This document shows positions 5,341 to 54,190 of a stretch of DNA of 64,000 bases, in pieces (the stretch's first letter is position 1; each line of letters starts with the position of its first letter). The translations under genes and the position numbers were made by a program. The DNA lies in IMG/VR virus record IMGVR_UViG_3300011008_000026, positions 30,501-94,500 of that record; one strand, given 5' to 3'. The notes beneath the pieces were generated by a model. The model searched no databases and was not told where the DNA came from. It saw only the letters and a list, made by a program, of their open reading frames with translations. The DNA is from a virus (lineage: Duplodnaviria > Caudoviricetes).

Positions 5341-5423
5341 CTGAGCACCTCCTTTTGTAAATAGGGTAGAGGAGGAGGGGCCGTCAGGAGCCCCTCCTCC
5401 GAATAAATAACCGGAAAGTAATC

Positions 5424-5458
5424 CTCTCTCCATTATGGTGTTTTTCGAATGGAGAGAA
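5424..5458 (-). promoter_or_regulatory. Phage-specific promoter-like motif copy 1
   Basis: TTCTCTCCATTCGAAAAACACCATAATGGAGAGAG upstream of Dit; one of 7 copies. Confidence 0.65.
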
Positions 5459-5479: not shown

Positions 5480-8400
5480 TTAAAAAGCTAATGCACCCAT
5501 ATTGAAACCTCTGGTAGAAATTTCTTTCTGGAACTGCTTTCCAACCTTCTTTGCGACCGCTCTGATATCTTCATCCGTATTCAGATTGGCCTGAGTAACA
5601 TTTATAATCACGTCTCCGATACTCTGGTTGTAAGTTTGCCCAAGGCTTTCCGGATTCTGCAAGGACATCAACTGAATGTTGATCGAGTTAAGGTAGTCGT
5701 TTAAATCAGCGCTATAATCTTTAATCGCAGTAAGATCGATACTCATCTGATCCATATAGAAGCCAAGCATGTCATAGGTGTCTTGAGCAATCATAAACTC
5801 GGGATCGCCAAGCATTGAAAGTTTAGACGATGAAATGGTACTTGTTTCTCCCGCTTCGTCTATCCCATCAAGAAGTGTCCGTATTAATCTTGTGTCTCCG
5901 GAGCTGAGAAACGCTTCCGGATTTGTTTTCGTTCCGTCAACCCAAGCAGGGCCTGTGAAATCAACTAAGCCACCTTTTTTATAAACTGACATACCTTTCT
6001 TTGCAGTGGTAACCATAGGTGTTACACTTGCGGTAGCTTCATCGGATGTATACCCCTGCTTTTTCAGCAATGAAACTGTAGATGACTTCAAACTATCGAG
6101 ACTTGCGTTCGCTGCATTTTGAGCTTCTGTTTTCGTTTTGAAACCCTTGTTACTGTATGTCCGACCATCAAAAGAGAACGAATAACCATGTTCATCATTT
6201 GTGGTGGTGGTATTAGTGCTTTTATTTCCAGAAGAGCCACTATAACTGGACGAACTTCCGTTTACGTTTATGGTAATTACCGGAACGGAAGTTGTCTCAG
6301 CAGACGCGTTAACATTGTTTGCAAAGTCTGCGGCATAGCTGCCGATAACATGGCTGTACTCATCGTACGGATCGTAGTTCTGAAGTTCAGGATCAACCTG
6401 TTTGGTGCGCTCATAATAATACTTGACTTCACTTGTGTAAAGACCAGTGTCGTATCCTGTACCATTGGCAATTTCTACTTTGTAGGTATAATCCTTCAAA
6501 TCTTCCAGTTTCTCTACGATCTCGTGATTATCAGTCCACTCGGCGTCGTTCTTAGTAGAAGCTTCGAAGTCGTCATACAGTTTTTCCCAATAGGAAATAA
6601 GCGCTTTCTGACCGGCTTCAGAGGCAATCTGATATTCCTGACTCTCTTTCATGAACGCAATAAAGGATTCCTGCGAACGCATTTCTTTGTCAACCTGATC
6701 CCAGTAGGTCTGGACATAACCTTTCATATTATCCCAGGTGTCGCTCCAGCCCTGCTCCATTTGTTTCCGGCTTTCTTCCGATGCGTTTTTATAGGCTTCA
6801 TTATATTGCTTCATCCAGTTCAGGTAATCTTCGAATGACCCGCTCATGATCTTGGAAAGCTCTTCAGAGAAGTTGTTGGAATTTTCCAGCATCTCATTCA
6901 GATCTTCCTCGTAGGCTTCTTCATAGTTGCCGATAGCTTCAATCTGATCGTCTATAATCTGAATAGCGGTATCAGCTTCCTGCTGGGCAATATCCCAGGA
7001 TATCTCCTTTTGAAGATCCGCGATCTGCCTGCGAAGCTCTTTAGCATCCTTTGTACGGGTAGAGTCAGCGGAAATTACGGCAAGCTGACGCTGTAACTCA
7101 GCCAGTTCTTCATACTTATCCGCTTCGTCAATAGCCGACTTCCGGGCATTTAATCTTTCGTTAATCAGACTCTTCTCCTGATTTAACGCTTGCTTCTTCT
7201 TCTCCAGATCTTTCTTCAGTAGCAATTTACGTTAGCACTATTAGGTTGTCATCCTCCGTGCTGTTACACAACAAATTTCCAATGATATCCTCCTGCCGAT
7301 TTTCTTCTTCCTTCGGCGACGGCTTGAATATTTAAGTTTCCCGGCATTGCTTTATTGGCTTCCGTACAACTCGAATAAATTACACCTGTTTCAACGCACA
7401 TAACTGGTCTTGAAACTGCTTTCTTTATCTTTTCTATATGTTCTTCAGATATTGTATGGCCCATATGTGATTTGCTGATTTTTTTTCTCTATACTCTTTA
7501 CTGGATCGTAATCTTCGATATTCGGCGTAAAAGACTGGGTCTTGGAACTGCTTTAATGTTTGCTCTCTTCTTGCTTTTCTGGACTCTTCTTTTTGCAATG
7601 CTTCTTTTACATGCTCAAAGCGGATTTTTGCCTTCTCTGGATTTTCACGATAATGTTTCTTTAGAGACTCGCTTTTCATTTTTGAGTACTCTTCATTGCA
7701 AACCAGCGCCCCATCTCCACCGCAAGTCCAATTATACCCTTTGGCTGAATCCGTAGTATTATAAAGCGCAATATAATATATTTCACGATCATTTATAACA
7801 TCCGGAGTACAAAGCTCTACGATCTCAAATCTAAAGCTATCAGGGCCATATTTATCCCATGCGTTTTGTAAATGCATATTATTATGAATACCTTTTTTTA
7901 ATTTCCAAATATGTAATGCCCATCTTGCTTGAATATCAATTGATCTTCCAATATATCGTTTCCCGTTTACCAAGTTTGTAATAGAATAGACACCGCATTG
8001 CTTCATTGCAATTACTCCTTTTCGTTGTGTAACTCTCATACTTTCGCATGAGTTCAGACTATATCTTACGCACATAAAGTGCGCACCAACCGCTTCGGCA
8101 GAGTGACGAGTTCTGCCTACTCCCAAAGGGGATAGTCGTTGAACCTTACTCTCCATTATGCGTATTTTCGAATGCGCGAATAATGAGGGAGTCTTGGCTG
8201 CTGATTGCCCATTCTAATGCTTGTTATTTTTAAGCGTTCACGTTTGCCTTTTCAGACTGCGTTGTAGCTAGCAAGCCTTTAGGGTGTTCCAGCAATTCGA
8301 TTGGTAGGGCCCTACTGTTTGAGCCCACTCATTCTTATATCTGGTTCGAATAACATCAAGCATTGAATCCTGAGCCGAGACCGTCGCTGACAGCATTTCT

Positions 8401-11400
8401 TTCTCCAGCTTAATCCGGTTCTTAATTTCTTTATCGATTGCGTTTTCAACCGAAGTCCTGGCTTTGATAATATTATCCGCGTTTGTTTTGATCGCCTGAT
8501 TGTTCTTCTCAATCGCATTGTTAACAGAAGAATATTCTTCTTCCATACTCATGATCTTTTGATTGATCTCATCGTATATGGCAGAACCCGGCTCGACTGT
8601 TTTAAGCTGTTCTTGCAGCCGTTCGATTGTCTCTTCGATAGCCTTGGCTCTTTTCTCCTGAAGCTCTGTTTCGATGTTCAGCATCGTCCCGTAGTTTGTA
8701 AGTTCTCCGGAATTCTGATACTTTGTCTCTTCATACTGAACAAGTTTGATCTGATGCTTTGTAAGATCATCCTGATCTGTAAAATCATCCAGAATGCTCT
8801 GGAATTCAGCTTCCTGAATTTCCTGAACAAGATCATCGTAGGAATTCTGTGTCTGCAACAGGGTTTCCCGAAGACTCATAATCTCAGACTTCAAGGTCTT
8901 CCATTGCGTACTGCCTTCCGTGACACTGCCATCAGTCAGCTTCTCTTCCATTTCAGCGAGACTATCACTTGTTACACCAATGCTTCTGGCCGTAATATCC
9001 AGCTCTTCGTTAAGCATGTTGATGTAATTCGTGTTGTCATTCTGGTTTTTATATCCGGTCGCAGTCAGTTGCGCCATCTTAAGCTCGTGCTCAACATCAG
9101 CAGACTTCTCGTTGTATTTCGTGGTTAACTCCGAAACGATAGACTCTTCAATGGCTTGATCGTTTTCCTGTATTGCCAGAGTTGCAGAAGCAATTGCTTC
9201 TTCGTATTCATAGATTGCGTCACGAGCAGAATACCACGCAGAAGTACCTTCTTCCAGCGAACTCATCTCTTTTTTCATCTCATTCATAGCGTCGCTATAA
9301 AGAGATATCTGAGCGCTGTAATAATCGTTTTGATCGCTTAGCGTGTCACGGTATAAGCCCCACTGTTCTCCGTTTTGATATATGTTCCCCCATGTAGAGA
9401 GCATATTTTGTTCGTGAGTAAGCGGGTCCATCTGGTTTGTCAGATCTGTAGCAATTTGCGAAACGATCGCAGAATTTAACGCTTCCGTATCTTCCAGAGC
9501 CTGATTTTCAAGCTGAGCGTTTTCTTCTTTCAGAGCCCAGATCTTATCCCGGACATCCATCCAGTTCTTGGTACCTTCTTCGTACGTACCGATCAGGTCT
9601 TCCCATTCTTCGAGCTGAGCATTGTTGGTCGCAATATCATTTTGATAGTTTGAAATCTGAAAGCGTGTTGCGACAACATAGCTTTCAAAGTCATTTTGAT
9701 CAAGATAGTTCTGTGCCTTCAGCTGCAACATGGTAGAAGCATGCTGGATAGGGGCATCTTCGTTTGCCTGTTTTGCGGCTACAACAGAGATTTTCTTTCC
9801 GTTGACTTCATCAATGGTATTGGCAACGTCTGCCATAGACTCGTTTGCGGAGTCAATAGCTTCCTGAAGCTTGTACCATTCTGTGGAACCTTCTTCTGTT
9901 GCGTTTCTTTGTGCTACAAGAGCTTCGATATTTGCGTTATATTGATTCCAGAGATTCTGTTGAGCGTCTATTTCCTTATCAATAGCATTAATGTATCCCT
10001 GATAATCATTGGCGCGCTCGTAGTAAGTCTCTTCAGACTGGGCCATGTTTACAAAATGCTGATAGCGTTTAATGTAATGGCTTTGTCCTTCAATCAAAGA
10101 ATCTGCCGCAGAAGTATTGTTCGAGTTTTTATTAGCTTTGGAAGAATCTCGACGAGGCGTATAATTGCTATTTGTTCCAACAACTCTTGGCTTAACAGAA
10201 GTAATTGTGCCGTCTCCGTTTGAGTAAATGTCCCAAAGAATGTCCAATCCCATCTCTTCGGCCATTTCAATCATCTTCTGTTTGTCTTCAGTCAATCGCT
10301 CCCAGAACAGATCTTTAATCTGCTGAGTATCCATCGTAAAAGTGCCGGACGTTACCGAAACATCAACGCCATCTATAATGAGGGGATTTTCACGAACGTA
10401 ATTGGTTAGTATGTCGTTGATGTTTCCGAATGCGCTCTGGAAATCTTCGGTAAGAGCCTCAAGCTGGGCATCTCTATCCTTCTTTGCGGCGTCAAGCATT
10501 TCATCTTGTTTTGTTTTAACGTCATTCTTATAATCATATCCAAGAGAGTTGAAGTAATTCTTGGTTTCTTCATCTACTCTCTTTCCGCTCTCGAACTGTT
10601 TTCGGGAATATTCATCATTGGAGAAATTCTTCATCGAAGTTCTGAGCTTTTTAATTGCTTCGTTTTGATCTGAAACAGTACGATTTGCATTCTTTGTTCG
10701 ATTGATGATAGCTTCAGTTTGTTCTCCCCATGGTTTATAAATTTCTATAAGACCGTCCCGAATATTCTCGTTTAAGTTTTTGATCGTTTCTCCGGTTCCA
10801 TTTAATGTGCCGTTAAGGTCTTTTGAAAGTTCATCGACTTCTTCAAATTGGCCTATCCAATCTTTAAAAGCAGGATCGTCGCCCATCAGGCTTTGCAGTT
10901 CATCGACATTAAGCCCGCCATTGCTGTTTAAAAGATTATTGTATTTTTGATATTGTAATTCATAATTTTGATCTTGCGTAAGTGCGGCTGCGGACGACAG
11001 TTGTTTGAGCGAATTAACCTGCTCTTTTCCAAACTTGTCGTTGTTTGCTTCGGCTTGCTGGAATATATTGGCAACATCAGTATTGCGGTTCAAGAACTTA
11101 GCCCATTCTTCTTCGGTGAAAATAGCTCCTTTATGAGTTCCAACGTACTGTCTGAGCCAAGCTTCTCGTGACATGTCTTCGGTTACGGTGTTGGCAATTT
11201 GATCTATTGACGCAGCGTCCTTAACTGTTTTTGTCCATGTTCCATATTTGTCAATCGCATCTTCCGGAGTTAAGGTTTCTGACCCGCTCTCTAAGGCGTC
11301 AATTATTCCTTGAATCTTTTCTTTTGCGGCGTCATCAAGACCTTCTGACGCTGTTTTGAGTTCTTCAATGAAAGAAGGCCAGTTTTCTTCTTTTAATTCG

Positions 11401-14400
11401 ATTCCAAACGCACTTGACATTTCCGTTCGAACTGTTTCAAGAAGATCGCTAGACTTTTCACGAATCATATCGGCTAGTTTGTCTTTTCCGTCTTCTGTTT
11501 TCAGAACACTTTTTATGTAATCAGAATTTAAACCAAGCGAGGTAGCAAGAAGTTCAATGTTATCATCATCTGTCAGATCTCCTGACCAGGCATTGTTTGC
11601 CATAGCAAGTTTGGAACGCTCACTGTAAAAGCCAGCTGCAACAGATGCTGCCTCAGCCTTTCCGCCTTCTCTTAGGTCGGTGATGTTCTTAGCAATCTCA
11701 GAAGCATTTTGTGCAATATTTCTATCTTCGCTTAATTGGAGCGACTTCTCTAAATCCGATTGCGCTCCTTCGATAACAGCTTTATCAATTTCCGCCTGCG
11801 CCTTTGCCAGTTGCGCATCCAACTCATCCTGAGAATAGCTTCCGGCTTCCTTCATTCGGATATATTCCGTCGCCTGTTCTCCCATTTTGCCGGCAGCCTG
11901 AGTATATAAAGCGTTTTCTTCTGTGTTTTTACTTGTCAGATCTCCTGTTAAAATGCGCCCCTGTGCTTCGGCAAGTTCAGTGGACGTAAAGAGTTCTGTG
12001 GCATTATAGAAAGGATTGCTACGGTCAACTTCAGTTGAAGATCCCATATAATACGCTTTGCCTTTATATATACGATATCCATTTTCACGAGCTTCAGCCT
12101 TTATACGGCGCCGCTCTTCATCGTTTTCTGCTGCCGCATAACGATCGGCATAAGTTCCGGCTTGCTGATCTGTAAGAATCTTAAACTGCTGATTGGCTTC
12201 TGCCCGTGCTGCTTCGTAGTCATTCTGAATACGGGCATCATCCCAGCCAGTCAGTTCCTTGATCATTTCATACTGCTCGCTCTTGGTCCCGTTGTTTAAC
12301 TTCGCTCCGATCTGAGCATTTGAATGCGCTTTATTGGCAAGCTCAAGCTCGGCTTTAATCTTAAGATTGCCGCCCTTCTTGATATTTTCAATTGCAGAGG
12401 CAGTTCCTTCCAGAACTTCGCCAAGTTCTTCAGCCTGTTTAATTCCATCAATCGTTAATTTAATATCCGCATTTCTCTCGAATATCTCAAGTTGAGCGTT
12501 ATACTGTTCAAGAAGTTCAAGATCTCTCTCGGATAACTTTTCGCCATTTTGCTGTTTTTGCACAAGCGCTGAATACTCGTTCCATCCGGAAAAGTCTGAC
12601 ATGTACTGGGCCGCAACTGTCGAGTCGTAAGAAGAAAGGCCACCGTTGCGAATTTTATCAATAACTTCTTTCTGTCCGTTATATTTGTCTGTAGAAGTTA
12701 AACCTTTAACGCCATATCTGCTGCTGTCGATTAAACGCCTTGCATACTTAACCTGTTCATCAGTCGCGTTCTGAGAAAGGAGAGACGTTAAAAGGTCTTC
12801 GTCTCCGACAATTTCTTTCAGATAGGCACGTTCATTATCATCCAGCACGGTGCTTCCTGCCGCCCATTGCTTAAATGTCTGTGGGCTGTAATACTTCTTA
12901 ACGGCATCTATTGCCTGCTGTGGCGCTCCCTGCTTTGTCAGGAAGTCTATCTGAGTCTGTTTCTCATCAGCGATATACTGATCATATTCCTGCATTCTTG
13001 CAGTTTCAGAGTAGAAAACCCGATTGTCCTTATTAAGTAAACTGTCGAGCGCAGACGTCGCAATGTCTGCTTTTTGACCTTTTGTCAGCGTGCTCTTTCC
13101 GATAGACGATTTGCCTGCAATCCAGTTGAGAAGAGCAAGATAGGTGCCTTCATCTTCAAATTTTACTTCTCCGTTTTCTACAACTGCTCCGCTTAGAATG
13201 TTAGCGAGTTCGCCGTTCTTCTCGTCAGTCCTGAGAAGATTTACAAGAAGCTGCTGACCTTCAGTTCCCGTTTGAGCCAGGAAGTCTTTATATGAAGAAA
13301 TCTCTTTCCCCTGAATAAGATCGTTGAACTGATCGGCATATGTCTTCTGCTGATTGGCAGTAGCATATGTCTGAGATCCAGTAGTGACAAGAGGGGAAAC
13401 AATATCTTGATAGGCGGTAAAAATGATTTTGTTAATCTTATTTTGAATTTCTTCCTGGATTGTCTTTATGTCTTCGACAATGTCATACGAATCGGCAAAC
13501 ACTTCTGGCGAATCAGGAACATTATCTTCTATCTCAGAAATCAAATCGTCTGCGAGCGCAATTGTATAATCATTGACCGCACGAACTGTTCCTTCAGAAA
13601 TCTCTCCATATACAGTTAAAACCGCAGCTTGCCATGTTTCATCGATACCGTTTTCGTTAATTACAGGCTTTCCGTCAGGCTCCATGCTCGAAAGAGTTTG
13701 ATAGACTTCAACGATTTCTTGCATTTTCTCATCGGAAATATTATCGGACTTATACGGAGATATTTCACTAATTTTTGGAGCTTCTACTGGTAAAACCTCT
13801 GCAGAAACGTTGTTGAACGCGCCTTCGTATTCTTTAACAGCTTCTTGCCATGCCAAGTCATTTTCACTTTTATCTACAGCGATTTGTCCGTGTCCTTTGC
13901 TATGTTCTGCGACAAGACTCCAATAAAATCCTTCGCGAGCATCTTCCAGCATTTCCCATTCGTCTTCCAAGGATTCCACAAGAATTTCGTAATCGTCACT
14001 TTCCTGCTTTTCTCCGTTGTGATCGATGTAATAATACATGCCTTTAACAGCATCAATCTCCGCTTGAGCAGCTTTTTTGCCTTCTTCGTTAACACCAAGA
14101 AGGGTTTCGCCCATCCAATACTGAACTTCATTCAGTTTGTCTCGCCATGCCTGAAGTCCTTCTTCGCCAATACCATAACTCATGCCGGTATTGGCATCCC
14201 GATAATCTGTTAAACTGCTGACGTAACTCTCGGCCTGTTCCCGTCCTTCTTCTTCGGAAAAGGTTTTAACGATTTGGCCTTCGCTGTCTAACACAACATA
14301 TTTGTTTTCTGAAATCTCTCTATTTCGTTTTGCGTCCAATAGAGTTTTTGCATACATTGGATCGGTCGGACTGATTTGCCGAAGTTCTTTGCTGGCTTCT

Positions 14401-17400
14401 TTTATCGCTTCATTTTCTTTATTGTGCGCATGCAGTATTCCATCTGAATCTTCATAAAATAAGAAATCAGAAAAACCTAGCACATCTCTTGCAAATCTTG
14501 CTGCTTCGTTCTTGTCTCTGCCAGCCGCATATGTAAATGACCCAGGATGAATATCTTCAGCTCTTTGTGTTTCGTCTCCGAATAATCCATGATAAGTATA
14601 CGAATATTTGTCACGATTCTCATCTTTAAAATCGCTTATCGTCTGATCTCTTAAATGAATGCTTTCAGAATGTAATGCTTCAGCTTCGGCGTTAGCAGCT
14701 TCCCATGTTTCAAATTCATCTTCCAGAACTTCACCTGTTCGTTTATTCTTTAACGTATAAGTCGCCTTAGTAGTTTCGATAATTGTCGGCTTCTCGGCTT
14801 CATTCTGTTTGTCAGCAATGGCCTTTGCTTCTTCGTAGGAATATCTCTTTCCGTCTGACCCGATATAATACGTTCCAGCTCCAAGATATTCTAGGCCAGC
14901 GTCAGCAGCCTGTTGCTCAACGGTTTCCTGCTTTTTTTGTTGACGATAATCTACCAATGTATTGTCAATGTTTTGTTGATAATTACCGTCTGTTCCAAAT
15001 ATGCTATTGTAAGCATCGGTTTTCCCGTTTGTAACATATACTCCAGCGTATTTGCCTGCCAGATAATCTATTTCATCTGAAGTATATCTTCCACCGAGAA
15101 TAGAACTATCACTGGCCCACTCTATAAAAGACGCTTTCGCGCTATCGTAAACCGCCGTAGGAGCAGAATCATATCCCGAACTGTTTAAATAATTAAAAGC
15201 TGCTTCAAGTTCTTGCTGTGTTACAACTCCATCGGATAGCCGCTTCGCCCATGCGTCTTTGGTGATACCGGTTGGATCGCTTTCAAAATCGTCCATTTTG
15301 CCAGCCAAGGCTGCGCTATACAACAAACTACTTAACGGGTCTTTTAAATCATTTGAAAAGCTTATTGTGCTTCCCCCGAGCGCTCCTGAAATAGCTCCGC
15401 CTAAGCCCCAGAATCTGTCGTTAACTTTTCCTGCTTCAATCTGGGAATTCATGGCACGCAAAGCGTTAGAATACATTTTGTATTCTTTAGCATCTTCATC
15501 AAAATACCATAAAATATTATTAAACAGAGGATTGGAAATATCTACTTCTTTACTTGCGGTTTCAACTTTTGAGGAAATACCTTTATCAATTGCATCTATA
15601 GAATCACCTCTGGTACCCGTCATGTGGCTTTCCCATAGTTGATTCTTTTTCTCATCCGCTTCTTTGATGACATTATCAGCCGCTTCGTCTGCTGTTCCAG
15701 ATAGTTCTTTTAACGAATCCGTTAATGTATCAATGCTATAAATTGTATCTTTGGCAGAAGAATCAGTTAAACCAAGCGATACTGCAAATTTATTTATTAA
15801 ATTTGCGTATTCTTTATTTTCTTCCGATGTTCTGTTTTTTGTATTCCTTAATTCGGTCAAACGATCGATTCCGTTGAAGCGTGTTTCGTATGCTTCTTTA
15901 TACTGCGTATTGCTCGTGCTAACTCTTTGCTCGGCTGTAGTTGATTTTCCAACATTATCAAGAGCAAGAGCAGAAACGCCAGCTATTCCGAGTCCTATTA
16001 CAATGCCGGGAAGACTTCCGCTCTTCAAACCCGCCATTATAGCGGCTATGGGAATCAGCGCAGATAAAACTCCCGGTAAAGAACCGGCAGAGGTAACAAT
16101 ATTGTTAATACCTTGAACAATGCGGGTCAAACCATCTACAAAACTTGTCGCAAGTCCTGATTTAATAACATCCTGAACAAGCCCGTCAAATGTGTTTTTC
16201 AGATTGTCTAAGGAAGCCTGAACACTTTCAACATAGACGTCGTATTTCTTATCTGTAATTCCATCCGCCTGATCCAGAAGATCAAGATACTTGTCGATTT
16301 CTCCTTCCTTAATACCAGTCATAATGGCACTAAAGTTAGAGAATTGACGAGTGCCGGCAATAGCCGTTGCAAGCTGTCTCTGCTCGTCATCACTCATCGT
16401 ATCATACTTCTGAGCCAGATCATACAGTAAATCAAAAGAAGATCTTCTTGAACCGTCGGAATTATTTGTTTGTATTCCATGGGAACGGAGCAGTGTCGCT
16501 ACGGCAGAACCACTTATGGTGTTGCCATTCTCATCTGTGATGATCTCTTTGGTTCCGACCTTATTCATCCGGCCGAAAATAGAGTTCAAGGTTGTACCAG
16601 CAACATTACCTGTTACCTGTGTCGTTGCAGTTACAGCAGTAAGCAAGGCGACGAGCTGTCCATAGGTTGTTCCGTCTATTGCGGCGGCCGCACCGGACTT
16701 TTCAATTCCCTTTTCAATCTGGGCGGCATTGGTAGCGGCACTGTCACCTAACATGGTAACAACATCAGCTGCATACTGCGCATCGTCTACCAGTCCAGTA
16801 TTAAGGGCGGTTGTAATCAGCTTGGTTGCGTCAGTTGCTTTTGTACCAGAAACTTTGGAGAACTTGGCAATTGTATCAAGCCGTTCTTCCATCTCTTCGT
16901 CAGAAAGACCCTGACGATAGAGCTCCGTACTCATCTGAGCAATTTCAGAGAAAGAGATCTTGAGTTCCTTGGCCTTGTCAATCAGACCTTGTCCAAGCGT
17001 TTCCATTTCAGAGTTACTCTTCAGAGTAATCATCTGAATATTGGTAAGTGTCTTATCGTATTCCTTGACGAACCGCTTAACTTCTTGAAGTATCTTGTTG
17101 AAGATTTGTCTGCCAAATCTGGTGGCGAGCATACTGATCGTATTGCCAAACTGAACAGAAGCGGCGTTTGCAATGCCGAAAGGCCCTGACAGCTTAGCAA
17201 TCTGAGATCCGGCACGTTCTGATGCAGCTTCCAAATCTCTTAATTCGGCAGCAGTCTTATCGTAATCCTTATCGCCTTCTCCTTTTCCTTTTTCAACCAT
17301 TTCGTTAAGGCGATTCTGTACTGTATATTTTTGAGCATCTACTTTTACTTTATAATTCTGCCAGCCGCTAAGAGCGGAGTCTCTTGATTGTATAGCACGT

Positions 17401-20400
17401 CCAATAAATCCACGATTCATGCCGTAGGTTGACCTTGTCAGCTGGTCCCCCTGCCGCATAAGCTGGTCATGCTGAAAATCTCTGGACTGAGATCGAAGCG
17501 CTATGCTTTCATCTGTATGTGCTTTAAATTCCTTTTGTTCGGCTTTTAACCTTTCCAGGTCAGCACTAAGTCTTTTAGCTCCATCCGCATATTCTTGGCG
17601 GGTTTGTTTGCTATAAGATTGGTCTCTGGCCATATCATTAAGCTTTTGCAGTTCTTTTTCTACTTCAGCGATTTTTTCTCTCCACTTTTCAAGTGCTTCG
17701 ATTTGGGGATCATAGGTTCCTGCAATTTTGTCATTAGCCGTGGAGAGACTTTCAATCATACTCTTGGATCCAGCCAAAGAATAATTCATGAAATCCCGGC
17801 CGGCCATAGAGGAAAGAGTATTATCACCTTTAACGAATCTGAGTAGTTCGGATTGTTGCTCGTCGCTTAATGTATCAAATTGACTTGATTTAACAAATTC
17901 GTTAATTCGTTTTTCGTAACCACGTGCAATACCTGTATTTACTTCCAAACGCCTGATTGCGGCAGGTGTTTCTTTAACCTTTGCAATGGAAGATAAATTA
18001 CCGGAATACAGTTGTTTAGAAAATTCGGTACTTCCTTGAATCAGCTGCGCAAAACGATCTTGGGCTAGTTGCCTGAACTCCGGATCCGCCATCATCCCGC
18101 CAGGTCCGGAAGGTCCACTGGGCGGATTGTTTGGCGGAGAAGGAGAAGAAGGAGGATTGTTACCCGTGTTATTTTGGCCTGTCTGATTACCGAGTACAAC
18201 AGGAACATTGTTTGTTGTTGTGTTGTGATTGGCTGCATTCGGGCATTGAGATAAAGATGCATCATATTCAATGCCACAAATCGGACACTTCTTTTTCGGT
18301 GTTTTACCTGAAGAAGTTCCCCCGCCTTGTCCGGTTTGTCCATTTGTGGTGGTTTGACTTCCGGATGCGGCAGGCGTTGCAGAAGCATTATTCGTTTGTG
18401 TTTTATGATTAGCCGCATTGGGGCATTCTGGAAGATTATGATCATACCAAGTGCCACAAATAGGGCATTTTGTTCTCGGGGGAATAGTCCAAGGTTCACG
18501 AGAGTCATAGAATGGAATATCTTCCATGCCCGGTTCTTCTTCAAATCTGCCTCTAATTCTCAGTATCTGACTTGCCGATTTAACTTGCGATCCTCTTCCC
18601 CTTGCTAACGTATAATGCTTTTTGATTGAGCTATCACTTTCCGTTGTAATATTTGGGATGGCTTCAGTTGCAACCAAAGCTTCTTTCTCTTTTTCTTCCT
18701 GCGTTTTCTGTGCAACTTTCCACCCCAACTCTGGCTTGGATGAAGGTTGATAATTTACATATTGACTGCCTTGTAATAATGCGATTGCCTTTTCTGCGGA
18801 AACTTGTCCAACTCCATTAGTTACTAATTGCTGCCAATTTCCAGAAGAGACAGCTGCGGCGACAGTCTCTCTTGGTAAATTCAGAATTGCATCAATTTGA
18901 GAATCATTTAATTTTCTGCCGGACGCAGGCTTTTGCGACAATAAATCACGAGCTTCATCTTTTGCCGTCTTCTGAACTTGATTTGCTACTTCAGCTTTTG
19001 CTTCAGCCGCCTTCTGTTCTTCTTTCGCCTGTTCCTGTTTTGCATCAGTTGCTTTTTGAGCAGCTTCTTCAGCCTTTGTTTCAAGAGCCGTATCAGGAAC
19101 TTTGTCTGTTGTTGTAACCTGTACGCTTTTTTCGCGTACATCCTTTAATACTTCATCGGCCTTTAACTTTTGCGCTTCAATTTCTGCTTGCGCAGCAGCT
19201 TCTTCTGCTTTGACCTGCTCTTGAGTCTGAACAATCTTTTTTCTTTTCGGTTTCGTTTCCTTTGGTTTTGGCTGTTCTACAATCTGTTCTGCCGCTGGCT
19301 CTTCGACTTGTGGCGCTTTAGATGCTGTAATTCTGGAATACAGCATAGAAGGATCAACGCCTAAAGAAGCGGCAAGCTTTTCAGCGGATGCTTTTCTCTC
19401 CGAATCACTTTCTATTGCACGCTGAGTATATGAATAGTTACTAATTTGCTCAGCTACCATCAGACCGGCAGCTTTACGTCTCTTTGCATATTCATCGTCG
19501 AGATTAAAATATTCACCATTCTTTTGCTTTTGCTTTTGTTCTTTTTTCAAATCAGCCCAGATTTCTTCGTCTGCAAGCCTTTTTTGCGCGAGTATAGCAT
19601 CTTCATCTTCCTGAGAAAGAGCAATAAAATCTCCATTTAATAAGCCTGCTTTCGCCTGACGAAGCATCATAGTAAGTTTGTAGGCTTCAGTTCCTTCTCG
19701 TTCCGATGTTGGCATGTTCTTTGAATCGAGAATTGTATTCCAGTCATAGAGAGAATTGCCGTGTATATCGTGACCATTGATTTCAAGACCCTGCTGTTTA
19801 AGCTTACTTCTTTGACGAAGTGTTCCAAGAACCGCACCGTTGGTTAATGTCGGAAGATTAACTTCGTCGAGTCTTCTTTTGTTAAATTTTTCTTGTGCTG
19901 CCTGATCCCATACATATCCGGATTCGTCATTAGCGCCTTTTGTAGTAACATCTTTAGCGGCCCATTCGAAAATTCTTGCAAAAGAACGACCAAAAGAAGA
20001 TGCACTTGTTTGTTCTTCTGTCTGCGCCCATTTTTCTGCTGTTTTTAAGTGAGTAGAAACAACATCATATTGATCTTCGTGGTCCAACAGAGCCTGAGCA
20101 AATTCAGGATTAATCTCGCCATTTCTATTATAAAGAGCCGCAATAATATCTGTAGCTCTATCTGCTTGACCCATCATGGGACTGGTTACGCCGACACCAA
20201 ACATATAATCAATGAGGTCATCCATGCTGTCCAGTTTCCATGTTTTATCAGGGTTGTCCGGTAGACTTAGTGTGCGATTCTCTTTTCGCGCTTTTTGATT
20301 TTTCCGAACGTATGCTATTTTTTGTTCATCGGTCCATTTTGACGCATCAGGGAATTGTTCTTCAGGGTGTTTCTTTGCCTTTTCCTGCATATTGTCAAAG

Positions 20401-23400
20401 GCTGCCAGAAGAATGCCGTTAACTTGCTTGGTCGCTTCCTCGTTCAACAATCCCATTACCTGTGCGAAATCTTTTTTGTCCGTGCTGGATAAATTATCAA
20501 TGTTGAACATTGTGGACAGATCAAACTGACCTGTTTTATCACCATCGAAATCCATTCCCTGTAGGAATCCAAGAATTGGAGATACGGGATTAAAATAAAT
20601 GCCTTTCTCATCCAGCCCGCGATTTGACATAGATTTACGGATGGCAGCACCAACAGTAGACCGCCCGCCGCCTACCACATCATTGCTGTTCCAAAGGTTT
20701 TTTGCCTTTATGTTACCGCTTAAGGTTGCGGGAAATCGAACAAGGGAAAGAAATTTTGAATTGGATTTAGCAGAGACAACGTCGTTTTCTCCAAGATGCA
20801 GCTTTCTCTGCAAAGGTGTTAACTGTTGTCCGTTACGAACAAACATTTCATTAAGTACATTCTGCGCCCATGGGGCCGCCATGCCATAAGACATGACGCC
20901 TGTTGGCATCAATCTGTCACCTTCAGTATATCGCTGAAGCATATTGTCGATATGATCCTGCTTTTTCTTTCTGGCTTCTTCAGAATTTAAATCAATTGTT
21001 TGATCTCCGCCAAAGATAACATCGCGGGCATATTGTTCGTCGTCAAGATGCGCTATTTCTTTTTGCAGAATATTTGCAAAATAGGCTTCAATATCTTCTC
21101 TTTGAAACGCTCCTGCAAGCTGTCCGTTCACAATTTGTTTGGACAGCCACCGAGAAGAAGTACCAGCACCATCGTATGTTGTTTTAGCATATATATGGTG
21201 TCTGGAATAATCTCTGGAACGCCGATCATTTAACTGTGCCTGAGTCAGATCATTTCCTTGGTCGTCTTTAAATATAGCCTTATTTTTAATATTGTCATCA
21301 ACTTCAAGAAAATCAGTGTCCCAAGGTACAATAAGATCACTGCGCCAAACGACATTGCCCTTTTCGTCTTTTCTGACGTCCATTCCGGCTCCGGGAATAA
21401 CAAAATCGCCATATTGCATCATAATGCTCTGAACCATCTTGTTGCGCTTACGTCCGCGAATAGATGGATCGATTGCGGCAATTTTAGCTCTTGTGATATC
21501 ATTGTCTATGATCTGGTCAGGATTATCGCGTTTCATCCCAATCAAATCTTGCTTAACAAACGTGGCTTTTCCGCCGTAAACACGTCCCTGGAAGCTCTCC
21601 TGAACACCCTTGTTAAATGCCCAGTTTGCGCCGTCCATCAACTTGATTGCATCTTTCCCTTCGCCTGTAGCAAAGTGCCCGACAACAACCTTCATATTAG
21701 GTTTGCCGAGCTGTTCCATGATACGCTTCTCTTGCTGAGGATGAGTGAGTTCACCGCTTGCCTTTTTTTCCGCAATTTTCTTTTCCGCTTCCGGAGTGCT
21801 TTCAAAACCAAAGTTCATTCCCCAATAGGAACTTAGGTCTTCGCCATCTGTAGCTAACAGATTCATATTGTAAGCGGCTTTTGCAAAATCTTTACGGCTG
21901 GAAAATTCATTTCCGGCCCCATTCCGAAGTAATTTTAAACCAGCAGCCCGAATTTCATCAGAATATGGAGCGTCAGGCGCCAAACCAAGCTCATAGCGGC
22001 CTAGATCGTCTACGATTGAAGCCTTCATAAATTCTGTATGAGTTTTGCTTACACGAGTTGCGATATAAGGTGTATTATTAACTTCATAGCCGTTAGTTAG
22101 ACGTTCCTTTAATTCCGCCTTCAGCTTTGCTTTTTCTTTCTCGGGCAAATATTGATTCGCAAGACGCTCGTCGTGTTTTAGATAGATCATGTTGTCGTCA
22201 AAGTCATTATGCCCGGCTTTAGAAGCAGAAGGCATAGAATGAACAAGATCCATCAGCATGCTGCCGTTCATTCCGATAGTATGAAAATCATCGGGTGAAA
22301 TGGAAAGCTGTCCATTTTTTGCAGATGCTCTTTGCGGTCCGTGAATATGTGGAAATGCTGTCCATGTGCCATTAATGTTTTTAACGGGACTTATTCCGGT
22401 TATTTGGACATTTTGCGCCATCATATCCAGCGCATATTCAGCAAAGCCACGGTTTACTTCATGGGGCAAGTGATTTATTTGCCCGACATATCGTTTTTTC
22501 GGAGAAGTATTAGGATCAAACTGGGGAGCCTGATCCATCCTATAGTATCCCGGATTGTACCAGCTAAAACTTTCATCCATAGAACGTGCTGTTCTAAGTT
22601 CGCTATCTAAAGTTTTATTATGTCCAATCTTTCGGGAAATATTCGGCCGGTTGTCCGGATCTTCGACATCATGCGTTCCGTATCTGTAGTGGCCACGTGC
22701 ACCGGTGACAATGCCGCTAAAATTAATACCACCCATGGCATTAACCATATCGCGTGTGGCTTCGTTGTTGTAATACAGTTTGCCCTGACTTCTTCCATAT
22801 ACACCGGCAGCAACAGCAGCATCTGCGGCAAGATGATCTTTTTGAACAATTTTATCCAGCTTGGCCTGTTCTTCTCTTGTCAGTTTCGTGTTTCCGTCTG
22901 GCGTGCTTCCAAATGTACGAAGTTCTTCCTTTTTTGTTGGACGTCGAACGGGGATGGTCCGATAAGACGCGGGTACCATTTCACGGAAGGATTCAGGAGC
23001 CGCCCTAAAAACGACGTTTGAATTGCCTGCTACGTCACTCCGCATGGATTGCGGAAGTAAAATTGGCATCTGGCTTTTAATATAAGCAGACATAACGCTG
23101 GTTTTAGCGGCTTGAGGGTTTACAGATTTAATCTGCGCCTGTAAAGATTTCCCTTCTGAACTGGATATGAAAGCTTTTAGCAGCTCATCGTCAGAAAGCA
23201 TACTGCTTTTTTTGATTCCCTTCGAAGCCTGAGCCGAAGCTTGTGCAGTGGCCCTTGTCGCAACGGTAAGAAGGGATTTTTTTATTTTATCAGCAAAGCT
23301 AACGAGAGTATTTGTAATTGCAGGAGTAATATCTTTGGCAAAGTCCTGTGTATTGGAAACTGATTTTTGAATATCCTGAATTGTCTTGTCTGCCATTTCG

Positions 23401-23687
23401 ACTTTGCGTCTGTAGACTGCTGTCAAATCTGCCCGTTCAATTGAATTTGAGGCATTGTCGATTGCGTTTCTGGCTCGAACAATATCGGTCAGACTTGAAA
23501 TCCAGTGATCATATTTTGTTTTGATTGCTTCACCGTATCCGGAAAGACCCGTTCCCTGAGCCATGGGGACAAGAGAAGAAGCCTTCTCCTGCAGGCTGGT
23601 GATCTTACTTTCGATCTCTTCTGCTTTCTGGTTAAAGGGATCATCGTTAATATCGACACCTAAACTTAAAATTTCATTTTCATCCAT
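5480..23687 (-). CDS. Giant tape measure protein with N-terminal RNA polymerase-like domain; spliced from exon 1 (23687-8322) and exon 2 (7222-5480), ~5702 aa
   Basis: TP901-type TMP core near residue 2200 (KEYDKTLTNIQMIT...STELYRQGLS...LGDSAATNAAQI); long coiled-coil C-terminal half; tail KKGGLVDFTGPAWVDGT typical of TMPs; RNAP motifs at residues ~685-1050; removing the intron joins NEWA|LLKKDL in frame. Confidence 0.85.
7264..8006 (-). pseudogene. GIY-YIG homing endonuclease with NUMOD-like tail, frameshifted at an A8 run (7479-7486)
   Basis: ATG 8006 after AAAAGGAG; MKQCGVYSITNLVNGKRYIGRS; the C-terminal RPVMCVETGVIYSS...GGYHWKF domain is in the -1 frame (7264-7464). Confidence 0.75.
8149..8181 (-). 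promoter_or_regulatory. Phage-specific promoter-like motif copy 2 (inside the intron, upstream of the HEG)
   Basis: TTCGCGCATTCGAAAATACGCATAATGGAGAG. Confidence 0.6.
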
Positions 23688-23747: not shown

Positions 23748-23787
23748 ATGATGGTTGAATTTTCAGATAGGGGAGGGGATTAAAGAG

Positions 23788-25329
23788 TTGTTTAAAAAGA
23801 ATAAAGATATAGGGGATGAATTGTTTTTACTTAAAAGCGAATACGAAAAAATAAAAATACAGCAAAAGAAATCTATGGATAAGATTTCTTCTTTAGAAAG
23901 CGTCGTTTCTGATCTCACAGGAAAAATCAAAGTCCTTGAAAAGAAGCTCGAAGATACAGAGAAGTCCAAACCGGTTGCTGCCTCAAACTCAGATATTAAA
24001 CTAACGCCCGAACAACAACAGGCGCTTACAAAACTCACAACAACAGACGATAATTATTTCGTCACGGGAAAGGCGGGGACAGGGAAGTCCACGCTGTTAA
24101 GAAAACTGGTGGAAATATCCGACCCGAAATCCACAGCAGTTGTTGCGTTTACAGGGGCGGCCGCGTTAAATGTCGGAGGTCAGACAATTCATACTTTCTT
24201 CAGATTGAGCCTTGGCCCTCAGGATGTTTTGAACTCAGACAATATTCAGTCGCCCCCGTATATCGAAGATGTTCTTGCCGTATTGAAAATCCTGATCATT
24301 GACGAAATATCCATGGTCAGATCAGACATTCTGGACATGATGGATCATAAGCTCCGGAAAGTAAAAGACGGCAATCTGCCGTTTGGCGGCTGTCGAATAA
24401 TTGCGTTTGGAGACCCGTATCAGCTTCCTCCGATTGCCAGTTCCCGTGAAGAAGAAAAATTCATCCGGCTCAGATACAATACGCTTCACTTCTTTGGCGC
24501 TCCCGGCTCGAAGACATTCAAAAGGATTGAGCTGCAGAATATTATGCGTCAGACTGATCAGCGGTTTATTGCCGCCCTGAATGAGATTCGCCTTGGGAAC
24601 CCTTCTGCAGAAACCCTTCGATACATTAATGCAAGCGGAAGAAAAGATTTCCCGGACAACTGGACACGTCTGACACTGAAGAAAAGTGTAGCCGCCGAGA
24701 TCAACCGTAAAATGCTTGAGAAAATTCCCGGCGAGGAGTTTATATTTAAAGCACAGTTTGGAGGAGACGATCCCCCTACAAGGAGCGATCTGACCTTCGA
24801 GCCTGTTTTGAACGTGAAGATCGGCGCTCGTGTAATTGCCGTTAAAAACGATCTGCAAAAACGTTATGTAAATGGATCGATTGGAATTGTAGTAGCCGTC
24901 AAAGACGATGAAATAATTGTCAACTTCAACGGAGTGGATATTCCTGTCTCGACAATGCTGGATGAAAAAGCGCAGTATTACTATGACAGAAAGAAAAGAG
25001 AGCTGTCCAAGCAAATCGTTGGGTGGTGCAATCAATACCCTCTGAAGCTGGCCTACGCAATTACCGTACACAAATCACAGGGCCAGACATTTGACAATAT
25101 CATTCTCGATTTCTCAGGATGCACAGCGTTTGCTCCGGGGCAGACCTATGTAGCCTTATCCAGATGCAAATCTCTGCTTGGCTTAAGACTGACAAGACCA
25201 ATTGACAGGCGGGATGTTTATGTTGATCCGGATATTACCGCGTACATGAACAATCAGTTTCAGCCGCGAAACGAAGAAGACATACTTGTCAGCAAATGGA
25301 TGGAAGAAATAGAACTGCCGTTTGAATGA
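23788..25329 (+). CDS. PIF1/RecD-like SF1B helicase
   Basis: GKAGTGKS, DEISMV, GDPYQLPP, YAITVHKSQGQT, YVALSR; likely TTG start at 23788 after GGGGAGGGG (ORF track starts at 23755). Confidence 0.9.
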   Translation: MFKKNKDIGDELFLLKSEYEKIKIQQKKSMDKISSLESVVSDLTGKIKVLEKKLEDTEKSKPVAASNSDIKLTPEQQQALTKLTTTDDNYFVTGKAGTGKSTLLRKLVEISDPKSTAVVAFTGAAALNVGGQTIHTFFRLSLGPQDVLNSDNIQSPPYIEDVLAVLKILIIDEISMVRSDILDMMDHKLRKVKDGNLPFGGCRIIAFGDPYQLPPIASSREEEKFIRLRYNTLHFFGAPGSKTFKRIELQNIMRQTDQRFIAALNEIRLGNPSAETLRYINASGRKDFPDNWTRLTLKKSVAAEINRKMLEKIPGEEFIFKAQFGGDDPPTRSDLTFEPVLNVKIGARVIAVKNDLQKRYVNGSIGIVVAVKDDEIIVNFNGVDIPVSTMLDEKAQYYYDRKKRELSKQIVGWCNQYPLKLAYAITVHKSQGQTFDNIILDFSGCTAFAPGQTYVALSRCKSLLGLRLTRPIDRRDVYVDPDITAYMNNQFQPRNEEDILVSKWMEEIELPFE

Positions 25330-43426: not shown

Positions 43427-43685
43427 CGGAAAATAATCGAAAAACTGAAAAGCGAACGGATGTTGTTTGAGAAAGAGATGTCTAGATTTGGTTTCTATGG
43501 AGAGAAATTTAATTTGATTGTGAAAACACATGTATGTAAGCATGCTTTTTTATTTCAGTGTAAAGAGACGGGAAAGGCTATTGAAAGATGATATGTATCG
43601 TGTTTTCTATATAACATAGGGTAAAAACGACACATATTGAGAGACGGAAATATGGGATATGGGATGGGGATAAGGAATGGTAGTA

Positions 43686-43800
43686 ATTAAAATTGAAAAA
43701 TGAGTTGGAAGGGATGGGGAATGGGAATAAAAACGTGGAAATGAGTTGGAAAGAATGGGGAATGGGATGATGGTGATTAAAATTTAAAAATGAGTTGGAA
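43686..43800. repeat. Purine-rich direct repeats in the strand-switch region
   Basis: AAATGAGTTGGAA at 43698, 43739 and 43788; ATGGGGAATGGGA twice. Confidence 0.75.
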
Positions 43801-43962
43801 AGAATCAATTTGGTGGTTTGAGGGATATAACGAAATATCCTGACGTAAAAGAGCCAACAAACCGGATTTCGATGTTTCATCGGATTTTTGGGTATTTGGT
43901 CTCTCTTACGATTGCGAGTAAGCCCTGAACCGGCAACGGCAGGCGTCGCTTGGAGGTAAATC

Positions 43963-46421: not shown

Positions 46422-49400
46422 ATGACTAGGAATTCTAAAAAGATCGTCTCCCGGGAACCCAGCGTCGGCTTTTCTCTTCGTGCATTCGATTCCAGCGTAG
46501 TTCTGGATGAGTATGCCGGACGGCTCTTCGACCTGAAGGGTCTCGCAGATGATCTTTGGGTAGTAAACCCGAAGACCGGAAAGCGGGAACCCGACCCTGA
46601 GATCGTGAAGCAGGGCCGCAACGCCTTCGCCGCTTTGGTTTCTTTCGCCGAGTCCATTCAGGCGAAACCCTTCCATATGAAGGAGAACCAAAGCAAGATA
46701 TCCCGGATGTCCCGTAGCATCGGCTCCGACATCTTCGGAGTTGACTACGAAGCGAAGACGCCCACGAAGGAGTGGGTCGTTGTTCAGCACGACATCCAGG
46801 AGAAGTTCAACTTCCCTTGGCAGTTCGCCGGTTCCGTCCGGAAGAAAGGCGAAGCCGAGATCGAACGTCTCCAGAAGCTGGTTGAACGCCGCTTTGGTGT
46901 TGCTGGACTCGACGTCATCCGCAAGGATGGCACGACTGACCGTTACTTTGGATTTGCCAGTTCTGCATCTCATCAGAAGAATGAAAAGCTCGTCATGGGC
47001 TTGGCATCGTCTATGGAAAGGCATGAAAAGGCGATCTGGTTCACGTTGACGAAAGAAGAGTTTCTGAAGCTCGACGTCAACGGAGCCGCGATCTGGAAAA
47101 TGCGGGCGAACATCCTTCGTCCCATCCGGTGTGAGATGAAGACCGAATCCGGCCGTCAGCTCAAGTTGTCCGACATCCAGCTCGTACCGGACATCGTGGT
47201 TAATCGGCACATCGAGAATGCCCGCACCGTGGGGAATCTCGATGAAGAAGGAAACGTCTTCCGAGACGGTCCCGTCGACGCCGAGAAAACCATGGCCGAC
47301 GGGGCTATCGTGTACACCGGACGCGATGGCGAAACCGATCTCGGGCCGCTGAAGCAGTGGGGCCAGACCACCAGCTTCGGAGTCAAAGGATGCGGTTGCG
47401 ATGGCCGTTCCTGCATCGAGGTTGCGGCCAAGCTTGAAGGCAAGCCAATTCCGAACAACCTGAAGCCCATCCTGATGGGAGAAGGTTGCTGGAAGTTCGA
47501 CAAGATCGGCCTTACTTGGGAAGAGTTCGTCGCTCGTGTCAACGAGATGGCGAAGGAATATCCCAGCCTGAACAAGCTGTATCTCCTTCGAGAGGCGGAT
47601 GAGCTTGAAGGAGAAACCAAGATTCGCCGGCTGACCCGGAGCCTGATCCAGCAGTGGGTCCATCTTTCGGGCTCTGACATCCGGAAGATGACTGCCCGTA
47701 GCAGGAAAGCACTCCGCCGGATGAAGACAATGAAGGGAGCAATCTCTTCTCTGACTGAAGCCGGCAAGCCCGAAGAAGAGCGGAGCGATGTAGCGAAGCT
47801 CTTCGGCAAGGCTCCGTGGCTGGTCCTGAACAGCTGCATACAGCAATATCTTCAGACTCGCTTCGAGAAGAAGCAGGCTGAAGCGGCTGGAAACAAGCTG
47901 CGTACGGAAGGCTCCTATCCGTATATTCAAGAGGATTTGGTTGCCGTTGCTCAGATTTGGGTATTCGGCGCTGATCCGAACCGGATGGACTTGGGTGTTC
48001 TGGCCGCTGATGAGATCAGTGTTCCGGACACCGAAGAGCGGAAGGTCCTGGCGGTCCGTTTCCCGGCGAACTACCAGACGGCGGCTGTTCGGAAGAACAA
48101 GGCGTGCGTCGAAGAGTTCGCTTCCTGTCCCGGTGTGTGTATGATCAGCTTCTACGATGACATCCTGATTCGGCAGGATGGCGACGTAGACGGTGATGAG
48201 ATTGCGATCATCCTGAATGACATCGCGATCGCCGCCACCGAGAACATGTACACCGAGTTCAATCCTCCTGTTGTAATCTTCGCGCATGGCGACAAGGCAA
48301 AGAAGGAAGTCATCGGTACAGAGGAGCGTTTGATCGCGACGATGTACGACGACCTCTGGAAGGCGAAGAAGTTCGATGGAGTAGGGAAGTATGCCAATCT
48401 GGCGACTCTCTGCTGTCATCTGGCTTCGGTTGCCTATGCCGAAGGACGGATGGCTGATATGCAGGTTCATCTCAATCAGATGAGTCTTGCATCGACGGGC
48501 GCGATCCTTGCGATTGATCAGGTGAAGGGGAACTCTGTGTCTCCTGAGCTAATCGATCGGTTGGAGAACATTTCCAAGCAGGTCTCCAAGATCTGTCGTG
48601 GAGTGTGGTCCAACGCGCATCCCGACCTGACGGAAGTTCCCAGCCGGCCGATGCCCTACACTCAGCAGTTTGTAAAAGGACTGTCTGAGCTGGAGTGCAT
48701 GCCGGAATCCGTGTCCCTGACTGATCAGATCGCTGGTCTGGTTATGCGGGACAGCGGAGAATGGGCGTTGGATACCGGATCCGCTGAATGGAACCGGGTC
48801 GAGGCGAAGCGTGCTCTGCTGAGCTTCGGCAACTATCGTGTCACCAGTGTCCGGAAGGCTCCGCTGGTTGGTACGGTGTTGAATCAGCTTTCCAATAACT
48901 GGTTCAACGACAAGAATCCGTCGGACAAGGCCGTGTTCGATGCGATTCGGAATTGCCAGCCGGTCTCTCAGTCGGATCTTCTGTCTCTTCTCTGGCGCAA
49001 TGCCTGCGCGCTTGAATTCCGCATGGAAGGCGAGAATCTGATCGAGAAGAGGAAGGAGTACCTGAAGGTGTGCAAAGAAATCCTGTATACGCAGGCCTGC
49101 TCTACGAAGTGGGTTGCGTCGGATGACGGACACATCTTCACCGATGCAGAGAAGAAGTTCTCGGTAGTGAATTCTGCCGTGTCTTCTGCTCTGTGTCTGA
49201 ACGGCAAGTCCAACGGTATTGACGCTGACAAGCGTGGCTCCTTTGCCATGTTTGTTCTGAAGGTCTTTGCCAAGGAACTGTGCTGGGCACTGGATCGTAG
49301 CAATCCGGATTCTTCTTTATTCTGCTTCAAGCAGGATGAGCTGGATGATCCGGACGACGAAGAGCTCTACACGGACGAACTCGGTGAGTCGGACGATGAA

Positions 49401-49463
49401 GAGTTTGAGTCGGAGTGGTTCTCTGATGAAGAGTACTACGACTGCAATGACTATTGCGACTAA
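46422..49463 (+). CDS. Single-subunit two-barrel RNA polymerase (SPbeta YonO / cellular RdRP-like)
   Basis: MADG, QTTSFGVKG, LTRSLIQ, VRFPAN, catalytic DGDVDGD (D588/590/592; 48183-48197), GVGKYAN, AIDQVKG; acidic tail. Confidence 0.85.
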   Translation: MTRNSKKIVSREPSVGFSLRAFDSSVVLDEYAGRLFDLKGLADDLWVVNPKTGKREPDPEIVKQGRNAFAALVSFAESIQAKPFHMKENQSKISRMSRSIGSDIFGVDYEAKTPTKEWVVVQHDIQEKFNFPWQFAGSVRKKGEAEIERLQKLVERRFGVAGLDVIRKDGTTDRYFGFASSASHQKNEKLVMGLASSMERHEKAIWFTLTKEEFLKLDVNGAAIWKMRANILRPIRCEMKTESGRQLKLSDIQLVPDIVVNRHIENARTVGNLDEEGNVFRDGPVDAEKTMADGAIVYTGRDGETDLGPLKQWGQTTSFGVKGCGCDGRSCIEVAAKLEGKPIPNNLKPILMGEGCWKFDKIGLTWEEFVARVNEMAKEYPSLNKLYLLREADELEGETKIRRLTRSLIQQWVHLSGSDIRKMTARSRKALRRMKTMKGAISSLTEAGKPEEERSDVAKLFGKAPWLVLNSCIQQYLQTRFEKKQAEAAGNKLRTEGSYPYIQEDLVAVAQIWVFGADPNRMDLGVLAADEISVPDTEERKVLAVRFPANYQTAAVRKNKACVEEFASCPGVCMISFYDDILIRQDGDVDGDEIAIILNDIAIAATENMYTEFNPPVVIFAHGDKAKKEVIGTEERLIATMYDDLWKAKKFDGVGKYANLATLCCHLASVAYAEGRMADMQVHLNQMSLASTGAILAIDQVKGNSVSPELIDRLENISKQVSKICRGVWSNAHPDLTEVPSRPMPYTQQFVKGLSELECMPESVSLTDQIAGLVMRDSGEWALDTGSAEWNRVEAKRALLSFGNYRVTSVRKAPLVGTVLNQLSNNWFNDKNPSDKAVFDAIRNCQPVSQSDLLSLLWRNACALEFRMEGENLIEKRKEYLKVCKEILYTQACSTKWVASDDGHIFTDAEKKFSVVNSAVSSALCLNGKSNGIDADKRGSFAMFVLKVFAKELCWALDRSNPDSSLFCFKQDELDDPDDEELYTDELGESDDEEFESEWFSDEEYYDCNDYCD

Positions 49464-53240: not shown

Positions 53241-53276
53241 TTTCTCCGCATTCGAAAAATCCCATAATGGAGAGAG
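53241..53276 (+). promoter_or_regulatory. Phage-specific promoter-like motif copy 6
   Basis: TTTCTCCGCATTCGAAAAATCCCATAATGGAGAGAG. Confidence 0.65.
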
Positions 53277-54154: not shown

Positions 54155-54190
54155 TTTCTCCGCATTCGAAAAATACCATAATGGAGAGAG
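54155..54190 (+). promoter_or_regulatory. Phage-specific promoter-like motif copy 7 (upstream of the tRNA/ncRNA cluster)
   Basis: TTTCTCCGCATTCGAAAAATACCATAATGGAGAGAG. Confidence 0.65.

Follow-up and report, generated by a model that had tools for sequence, protein, structure and literature searches.

We analysed a 64,000-nucleotide (nt) window, positions 30,501 to 94,500 of the IMG/VR virus record IMGVR_UViG_3300011008_000026, in which a giant open reading frame (ORF) on the minus strand joins a predicted two-barrel RNA polymerase (RNAP) domain to a phage tail tape measure protein (TMP). The ORF, at 8268-23687, encodes 5,139 amino acids (aa) in a frame that is open over 15.4 kb, with AAAGGAG, a strong Shine-Dalgarno sequence, 9 nt ahead of its ATG at 23687. 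The features of the gene, with coordinates in the window, are the following.

8322..23687, minus strand: tape measure exon 1 (aa 1-5122), from the ORF list and translation, with the 5′ splice site placed by alignment to P0002, an uninterrupted relative
22701..23687, minus strand: N-terminal region, aa 1-329, largely helical/coiled, matching relatives by BLASTP at 20-65% identity
19758..22460, minus strand: two-barrel single-chain RNAP domain, ~aa 410-1310, from predicted structure and motifs
21567..21635, minus strand: first-barrel motif D685-G686 ... Q700-G-R ... K707, at least 90% conserved among 27 sequences
20730..20738, minus strand: RxP strand R984-F-P986, 60 residues ahead of the metal loop, with R984 and P986 at least 90% conserved
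20538..20552, minus strand: metal-binding loop D1046-F-D1048-G-D1050, DxDGD across aligned relatives
17718..19340, minus strand: low-complexity tether rich in A/S/K/E/Q/T/P/G, ~aa 1450-1990, from composition and motif positions
16353..16976, minus strand: TMP core, PF10145 PhageMin_Tail, aa 2238-2445, Pfam E 1.3e-23
15948..16100, minus strand: two hydrophobic membrane-helix-like segments, aa 2530-2580, by Kyte-Doolittle
7223..8321, minus strand: group I intron of 1,099 nt with a GIY-YIG endonuclease ORF, from Rfam RF00028 and homologue alignment
7434-8156 as called by the ORF finder, minus strand: GIY-YIG homing endonuclease inside the intron, PHROG 7168, E 2.5e-33
5480..7222, minus strand: tape measure exon 2, 580 aa, 43% identity to P0002 aa 5154-5436

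The polymerase domain carries, in order, LMDGANW (aa 683-689, with D685), FQGRVYGGK (699-707), WLSKQIV (847-853), LVRFPA (982-987, with R984) and GMDFDGD (1044-1050). These are the residues at which an earlier, sequence-only reading of this DNA had placed the motifs, with DFDGD at nt 20538-20552. The spacing from R984-F-P986 to DFDGD satisfies [RK]xP-x(20-100)-DxDxD, the filter applied by Chaban et al. (PMC10770324). A HMMER search with aa 330-1500 returned 28 proteins, mostly giants of 3,800-6,000 aa together with shorter matches of 933-1,818 aa, and conservation was scored in an alignment of the query and 26 relatives (27 sequences) reaching down to ~26% identity. Residues D685, G686, Q700, G701, R702, K707, K801, K835, Q851, R984, P986, N997, D1046, D1048, G1049 and D1050 each reach 90% conservation or more in this alignment, among them the four aspartates (D685, D1046, D1048 and D1050) whose conservation in homologues the same reading had set as a check. 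DxDGD is kept in every aligned relative covering the site, bar one with DFDSD. Since conservation of at least 90% persists down to ~26% identity, the motifs go beyond what chance would produce, and the retention of catalytic-type residues in the alignment implies that selection has probably acted on chemistry and not on shape.

Modelled with AlphaFold2 from the relatives' alignment, aa 330-1500 reached a pLDDT of 85.1 and a pTM of 0.83, with confidence collapsing after aa ~1455. When the model was compared with the PDB using Foldseek, significant scores were obtained only to two-barrel single-chain RNAPs. The best match was Neurospora QDE-1 (E 1.9e-7), and further matches were plant RDR2, P74-26 gp62 and P23-45 gp64 (about 1e-3), and phi14:2 gp66 (E 0.023), below which the list continues with P23-45 gp96 and cellular beta-prime chains. 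Among the predicted viral structures of BFVD, the top match (E 2.5e-12) was an uncultured-phage protein whose annotation reads RNA-dependent RNA polymerase. A search for a double-psi beta-barrel fold had been named beforehand as a check by the sequence-only reading, and both the model and its Foldseek matches show that fold. By its modelled fold, its [RK]xP-DxDGD arrangement and the residues of the other barrel, the segment at aa ~410-1310 belongs to the two-barrel (double-psi beta-barrel) RNAP superfamily, and we infer the assignment of D685, G686, Q700, G701, R702 and K707 to particular barrel strands. The first 1,500 aa have no Pfam or PHROG match, and no Pfam RNA-dependent RNA polymerase match, and none of 50,697 phage records was matched by the RNAP region in tblastn.

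The remainder of the giant protein is a true phage tail tape measure, with a PF10145 core, membrane segments and a place between the tail genes and the genes for Dit and Tal. The PF10145 match scores 84.4 bits where the cutoff is 33.2, matches to six PHROG tape-measure families span aa ~1990-2570 (best E 1.8e-32), and the membrane-helix-like segments were called from Kyte-Doolittle 19-residue windows above 1.9. Both the core and these segments share one reading frame with the polymerase domain, to which they are thus covalently fused. The core begins ~1,190 residues after DFDGD, in agreement with the ~1,150 residues past the polymerase motifs at which the sequence-only reading had placed it. 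The two are joined by the tether, and the loss of model confidence in the segment at aa ~1450-1990 is consistent with flexibility there. The tether also holds a pair of zinc-ribbon-like units of the form CPICG...CPNAANH, at aa 1741 and 1801 (aa 1741-1822; window 18273-18467, minus strand), with a weak rubredoxin-like Pfam match that falls below threshold. The layout of the protein is conserved: in all 18 relatives of at least 3,800 aa an N-terminal region of ~320 residues comes first, followed by the RNAP and then by the TMP core, with polymerase identities to our protein from 70% down to 22%. The N-terminal region (aa 1-329) matches no Pfam or PHROG entry and belongs to no known family, though it is kept in relatives. 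Together the fold, the conserved DxDGD loop and this shared layout uphold the earlier proposal of a two-barrel polymerase domain ahead of a TMP core.

The motifs and the TMP core do lie in one ORF, as had been proposed, but this ORF covers only part of the gene. The group I intron (RF00028, scoring 67.4 bits where the gathering score is 50, E 6e-15) encodes the final 17 residues of the ORF, and the gene continues in a second exon of 580 aa. Alignment to P0002 places the 5′ splice site after GCT (Ala5122) at nt 8322, with the exon ending in U, and the 3′ splice site after the G at 7223. The ORF at 5480-7225, downstream of the endonuclease, matches aa 5154-5436 of P0002 with 43% identity (E 6e-65), and the predicted junction restores that protein's residue count. 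The spliced tape measure protein predicted from these sites is 5,702 aa long. A second group I intron (window 29055-29301, minus strand, Rfam 71.8 bits) lies beside the ORF of a 228-aa virion structural protein at 29266-29952, with GIY-YIG endonuclease ORFs nearby at 28124-28927 and 30115-30738 (minus strand). Because this intron adjoins a structural protein ORF, a second tail gene is probably also intron-split.

The window encodes a second polymerase, free-standing and on the opposite strand.

46422..49463, plus strand: P0029, two-barrel RNAP of YonO type, 1,013 aa, by homology to YonO

P0029 falls in no Pfam family, and tblastn of the protein against 50,697 phage records gave no match. In its family of 34 homologues, RFPAN and DVDGDE are invariant and are preceded by a D-G ... 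Q-x6-K pattern, and its first-barrel residues D293-G294, Q315 and K322 have the same order and spacing as those of the TMP-fused domain. A profile of this family aligned to SPbeta YonO using hhalign with 97.9% probability (E 4.4e-13, 562 columns), pairing RFP with RSP of YonO and DVDGD with DNDGD. In SPbeta, late genes are transcribed by YonO, a DNA-dependent RNAP (PMC5467207). By analogy with the phage described next, P0029 is likely the non-virion polymerase of this phage.

The sequence-only reading knew of no characterised RNAP-TMP fusion, and here the literature corrects it. Gp96 of Thermus phage P23-45 (also in P74-26, G20c and TSP4) is a TMP-fused virion RNAP with structures 8H2M and 8H2N (Chaban et al. 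2024, PMC10770324), and apart from the P23-45 work our literature searches turned up no description of such a fusion. The same study establishes gp96 as an active two-barrel RNAP with DFDGD at 779 and a minimal active fragment of 327-1124, found in virions as the full-length TMP. Gp96 transcribes pre-early genes, including that of a second, non-virion RNAP, gp64, and has an unusual flat, clamp-less structure, a shape proposed to permit passage through the tail; transcription simultaneous with DNA translocation is also proposed (PMC10770324). Our protein resembles gp96 in being one polypeptide with the RNAP N-terminal, in which a region of ~330 residues is followed by an RNAP of ~800-900 residues and then the TMP. 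It differs in having DFDGD at 1046 and not 779, no metallopeptidase domain detected by Pfam, a YonO-type instead of a gp64-type partner, an indicated animal-gut setting as opposed to a hot spring, and a terminase resembling those of c-st and SPbeta-like phages. Gp96 was a weaker structural match to the model than QDE-1 or RDR2, although Z is size-dependent and the gp96 crystals are partly disordered. The structural alignment with QDE-1 ends at about residue 1180 for the TMP-fused domain, compared with ~1370 for P0029, which is only a hint as to a clamp-less shape. A phmmer and profile search of the N-terminal 1,500 aa against PDB sequences returned coiled-coil noise only, and 8H2M and 8H2N were not recovered. 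A TMP-fused virion RNAP is therefore already known as a kind through gp96; new here are an unrelated sequence lineage and a YonO-type partner. Judging from the comparisons below, the fusion lineage would either be separate from that of gp96 or share a very ancient origin with it. The pair of polymerases in this phage parallels that of P23-45 but is built from different families.

Other known two-barrel enzymes share the fold and differ in context. QDE-1 and RDR2, the nearest structural matches at ~10-12% identity to the TMP-fused domain, are eukaryotic RNA-silencing polymerases that are RNA-templated and have no tail-like fusion. YonO, like the TMP-fused domain, is a phage-encoded single-chain two-barrel RNAP, but it is free-standing and not a virion protein; a weak hhalign alignment (8.3% probability) has the motifs of the two in collinear order. 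The crAss-like phi14:2 gp66 (PDB 6VR4) is a virion-delivered two-barrel RNAP within a very large multidomain protein and serves early transcription, though it is a podovirus protein, is not in a tape measure, and gave the weak Foldseek match noted above.

We consider it likely that aa ~410-1310 of the TMP form a catalytically competent RNAP that is delivered with the virion to start early transcription. Analogy with gp96 and general TMP biology supply the mechanism, and from the same analogy we infer enzyme activity, presence in virions, timing and templates. The polymerase would be connected by a flexible linker of ~500 residues to a conventional TMP core with membrane helices, and the whole protein would reside in the virion tail until infection, when it would be driven out into the cell envelope and its membrane-helix part may help form a DNA conduit. 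By the same analogy, the N-terminal polymerase would leave the tail last, just ahead of the DNA, and reach the cytoplasmic side, where it could transcribe the first-entering genes without host RNA polymerase. These genes plausibly include the P0029 gene (46422-49463), whose product would then transcribe later genes, as YonO does for SPbeta.

Several results weigh against delivery of an active early polymerase, or loosen its ties to known enzymes. A BLASTP comparison of the whole protein with full-length gp96 gave nothing below E 0.8, and hhalign gave a probability of <2%. Against YonO, hhalign returned probabilities of 8.3% and 0.7% for the TMP-fused domain, neither significant, and profile comparison detected no sequence similarity between this domain and P0029; more broadly, no hhalign comparison of the RNAP-domain profile with gp96, gp64, YonO or the P0029 family was significant. 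Since no sequence similarity was found, the link of the domain to known enzymes rests on predicted structure and short motifs. The inter-barrel connector is also longer, at ~340 aa from K707 to D1046, than the 266 aa from K322 to D588 in free-standing P0029. TMPs are often proteolytically processed, and the polymerase could be cleaved off. Finally, the viral contig behind the window, 94.5 kb long, is estimated to be ~67% complete, and this incompleteness bears on the genome ends and on which genes enter first.

It is unlikely, though the best of the alternatives, that the domain is active but has a main job other than gene expression, acting as a genome-pulling transcription motor, in primer synthesis or on RNA templates to make RNA. 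By structure the domain comes closest to QDE-1 and RDR2, which are RNA-dependent or dual-template enzymes; genome pulling was suggested by the sequence-only reading, and coupling of transcription to DNA translocation has been proposed for P23-45 (PMC10770324). However, the characterised phage members YonO, gp96, gp64 and phi14:2 gp66 are DNA-dependent transcriptases, the genome is double-stranded DNA with no RNA template evident, and genome pulling and transcription are compatible with each other. Less probable again is a polymerase-like domain that is not delivered with the TMP, either because it is cleaved off in tail assembly or because it is a dead structural or chaperone-like module. Proteolytic processing of many TMPs, the long disordered linker between polymerase and TMP core, and the difficulty of fitting a folded domain of ~100 kDa into the lumen of a tail tube would all suit this explanation, but every catalytic-type residue is conserved in relatives down to ~26% identity, the fusion is kept in 18 of 18 full-size relatives, and gp96 is full-length in virions (PMC10770324). 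An artefactual fusion, whether from chimeric assembly or from two neighbouring genes mistaken for a single ORF, is most improbable even for a metagenomic contig whose gene holds an intron misread by the ORF finder, given that the frame is open over 15.4 kb, that 18 independent metagenomic proteins of 22-70% identity have the same architecture and that parts of the stretch are present in runs of two separate studies.

The minus-strand neighbours of the giant ORF form a siphovirus-type module of terminase, portal, capsid, tail genes, TMP, Dit and Tal, through which three GIY-YIG homing endonuclease genes are scattered.

40183-41850, minus strand: large terminase, in the structural module
38586-40163, minus strand: portal, in the structural module
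34258-35253, minus strand: major capsid, in the structural module
4237-5433, minus strand: Dit, downstream of the TMP
3-4220, minus strand: Tal-like protein, downstream of the TMP

The terminases most like that of this phage, at 27-31% identity, belong to Clostridium phage c-st, to large Clostridioides phages and to SPbeta-like phages. The listed sequencing runs that match portions of the stretch are all of DNA, with none of RNA among them; they are gut metagenomes of animals from two separate studies (shares 0.40 and 0.21) and are only indicative of an animal-gut habitat for this uncultured phage. Pattern scans of genome and viral contigs confirmed no close relative and gave no prophage or host assignment. 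Within the module, and divergent from the start of the tape measure gene, sits a PIF1-like / RecD-like helicase gene (23755-25329, plus strand, Pfam PF05970, E 1.5e-29). Three tandem repeats of ~41-45 nt (43667-43815, plus strand) lie in the switch region, where the minus-strand structural arm gives way to the plus-strand arm, and may form a cluster of regulatory or promoter elements there. The plus-strand arm also has a MYG1-family exonuclease gene (56725-57579, Pfam PF03690, E 1.4e-44), unusual for a phage. At 55430-55930 in the same arm, flanked by tRNA genes at 54454-54525 and 56172-56244, is a pyrimidine-rich block of low GC (0.37) made up of degenerate 13-17-nt repeats, possibly with a regulatory or origin-like role.

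A 22-nt motif, CATTCG-N8/9-ATAATGG, occurs in six copies in the window where 0.01 would be expected, always oriented with transcription, and is a candidate phage-polymerase promoter.

5430-5451, 8153-8174, 28831-28852 and 30766-30786, minus strand: CATTCG-N8/9-ATAATGG copies, by motif count
53249-53270 and 54163-54184, plus strand: CATTCG-N8/9-ATAATGG copies, by motif count

The sites lie before Dit, before three endonuclease genes and in the tRNA region, and have TCTCC/GGAGA flanks. The ATGs chosen by the ORF finder at 5433 (Dit) and 8156 (endonuclease) fall within the motif, so that the true starts of these two genes are probably downstream.

The sole characterised TMP-fused virion RNAP comes from one small group of Thermus phages. 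Because the same arrangement occurs here in an unrelated sequence family of apparent animal-gut phages, with ~27 metagenomic relatives, the strategy appears broader than one thermophile lineage. The family would provide a mesophilic system in which to study the storage and tail passage of an enzyme of ~100 kDa, its YonO-type partner connects the SPbeta/YonO and P23-45 stories, and it should be useful for tracing the evolution of single-chain two-barrel polymerases. For annotation, giant TMP ORFs are worth screening for DxDGD polymerase cores and introns. We tentatively suggest, at somewhat less than even odds, that this gut-phage lineage acquired the fusion independently, with a QDE-1/YonO-like ancestor as its source and not the gp96 lineage, in phages that may be mesophilic with Bacillota-like hosts. 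If so, evolution would have repeatedly tethered an injected RNAP to the tail ruler as a general means of early transcription independent of the host polymerase, and the pairing of this RNAP with a YonO-type enzyme would give mesophilic phages of such hosts a two-polymerase programme encoded wholly by the phage.

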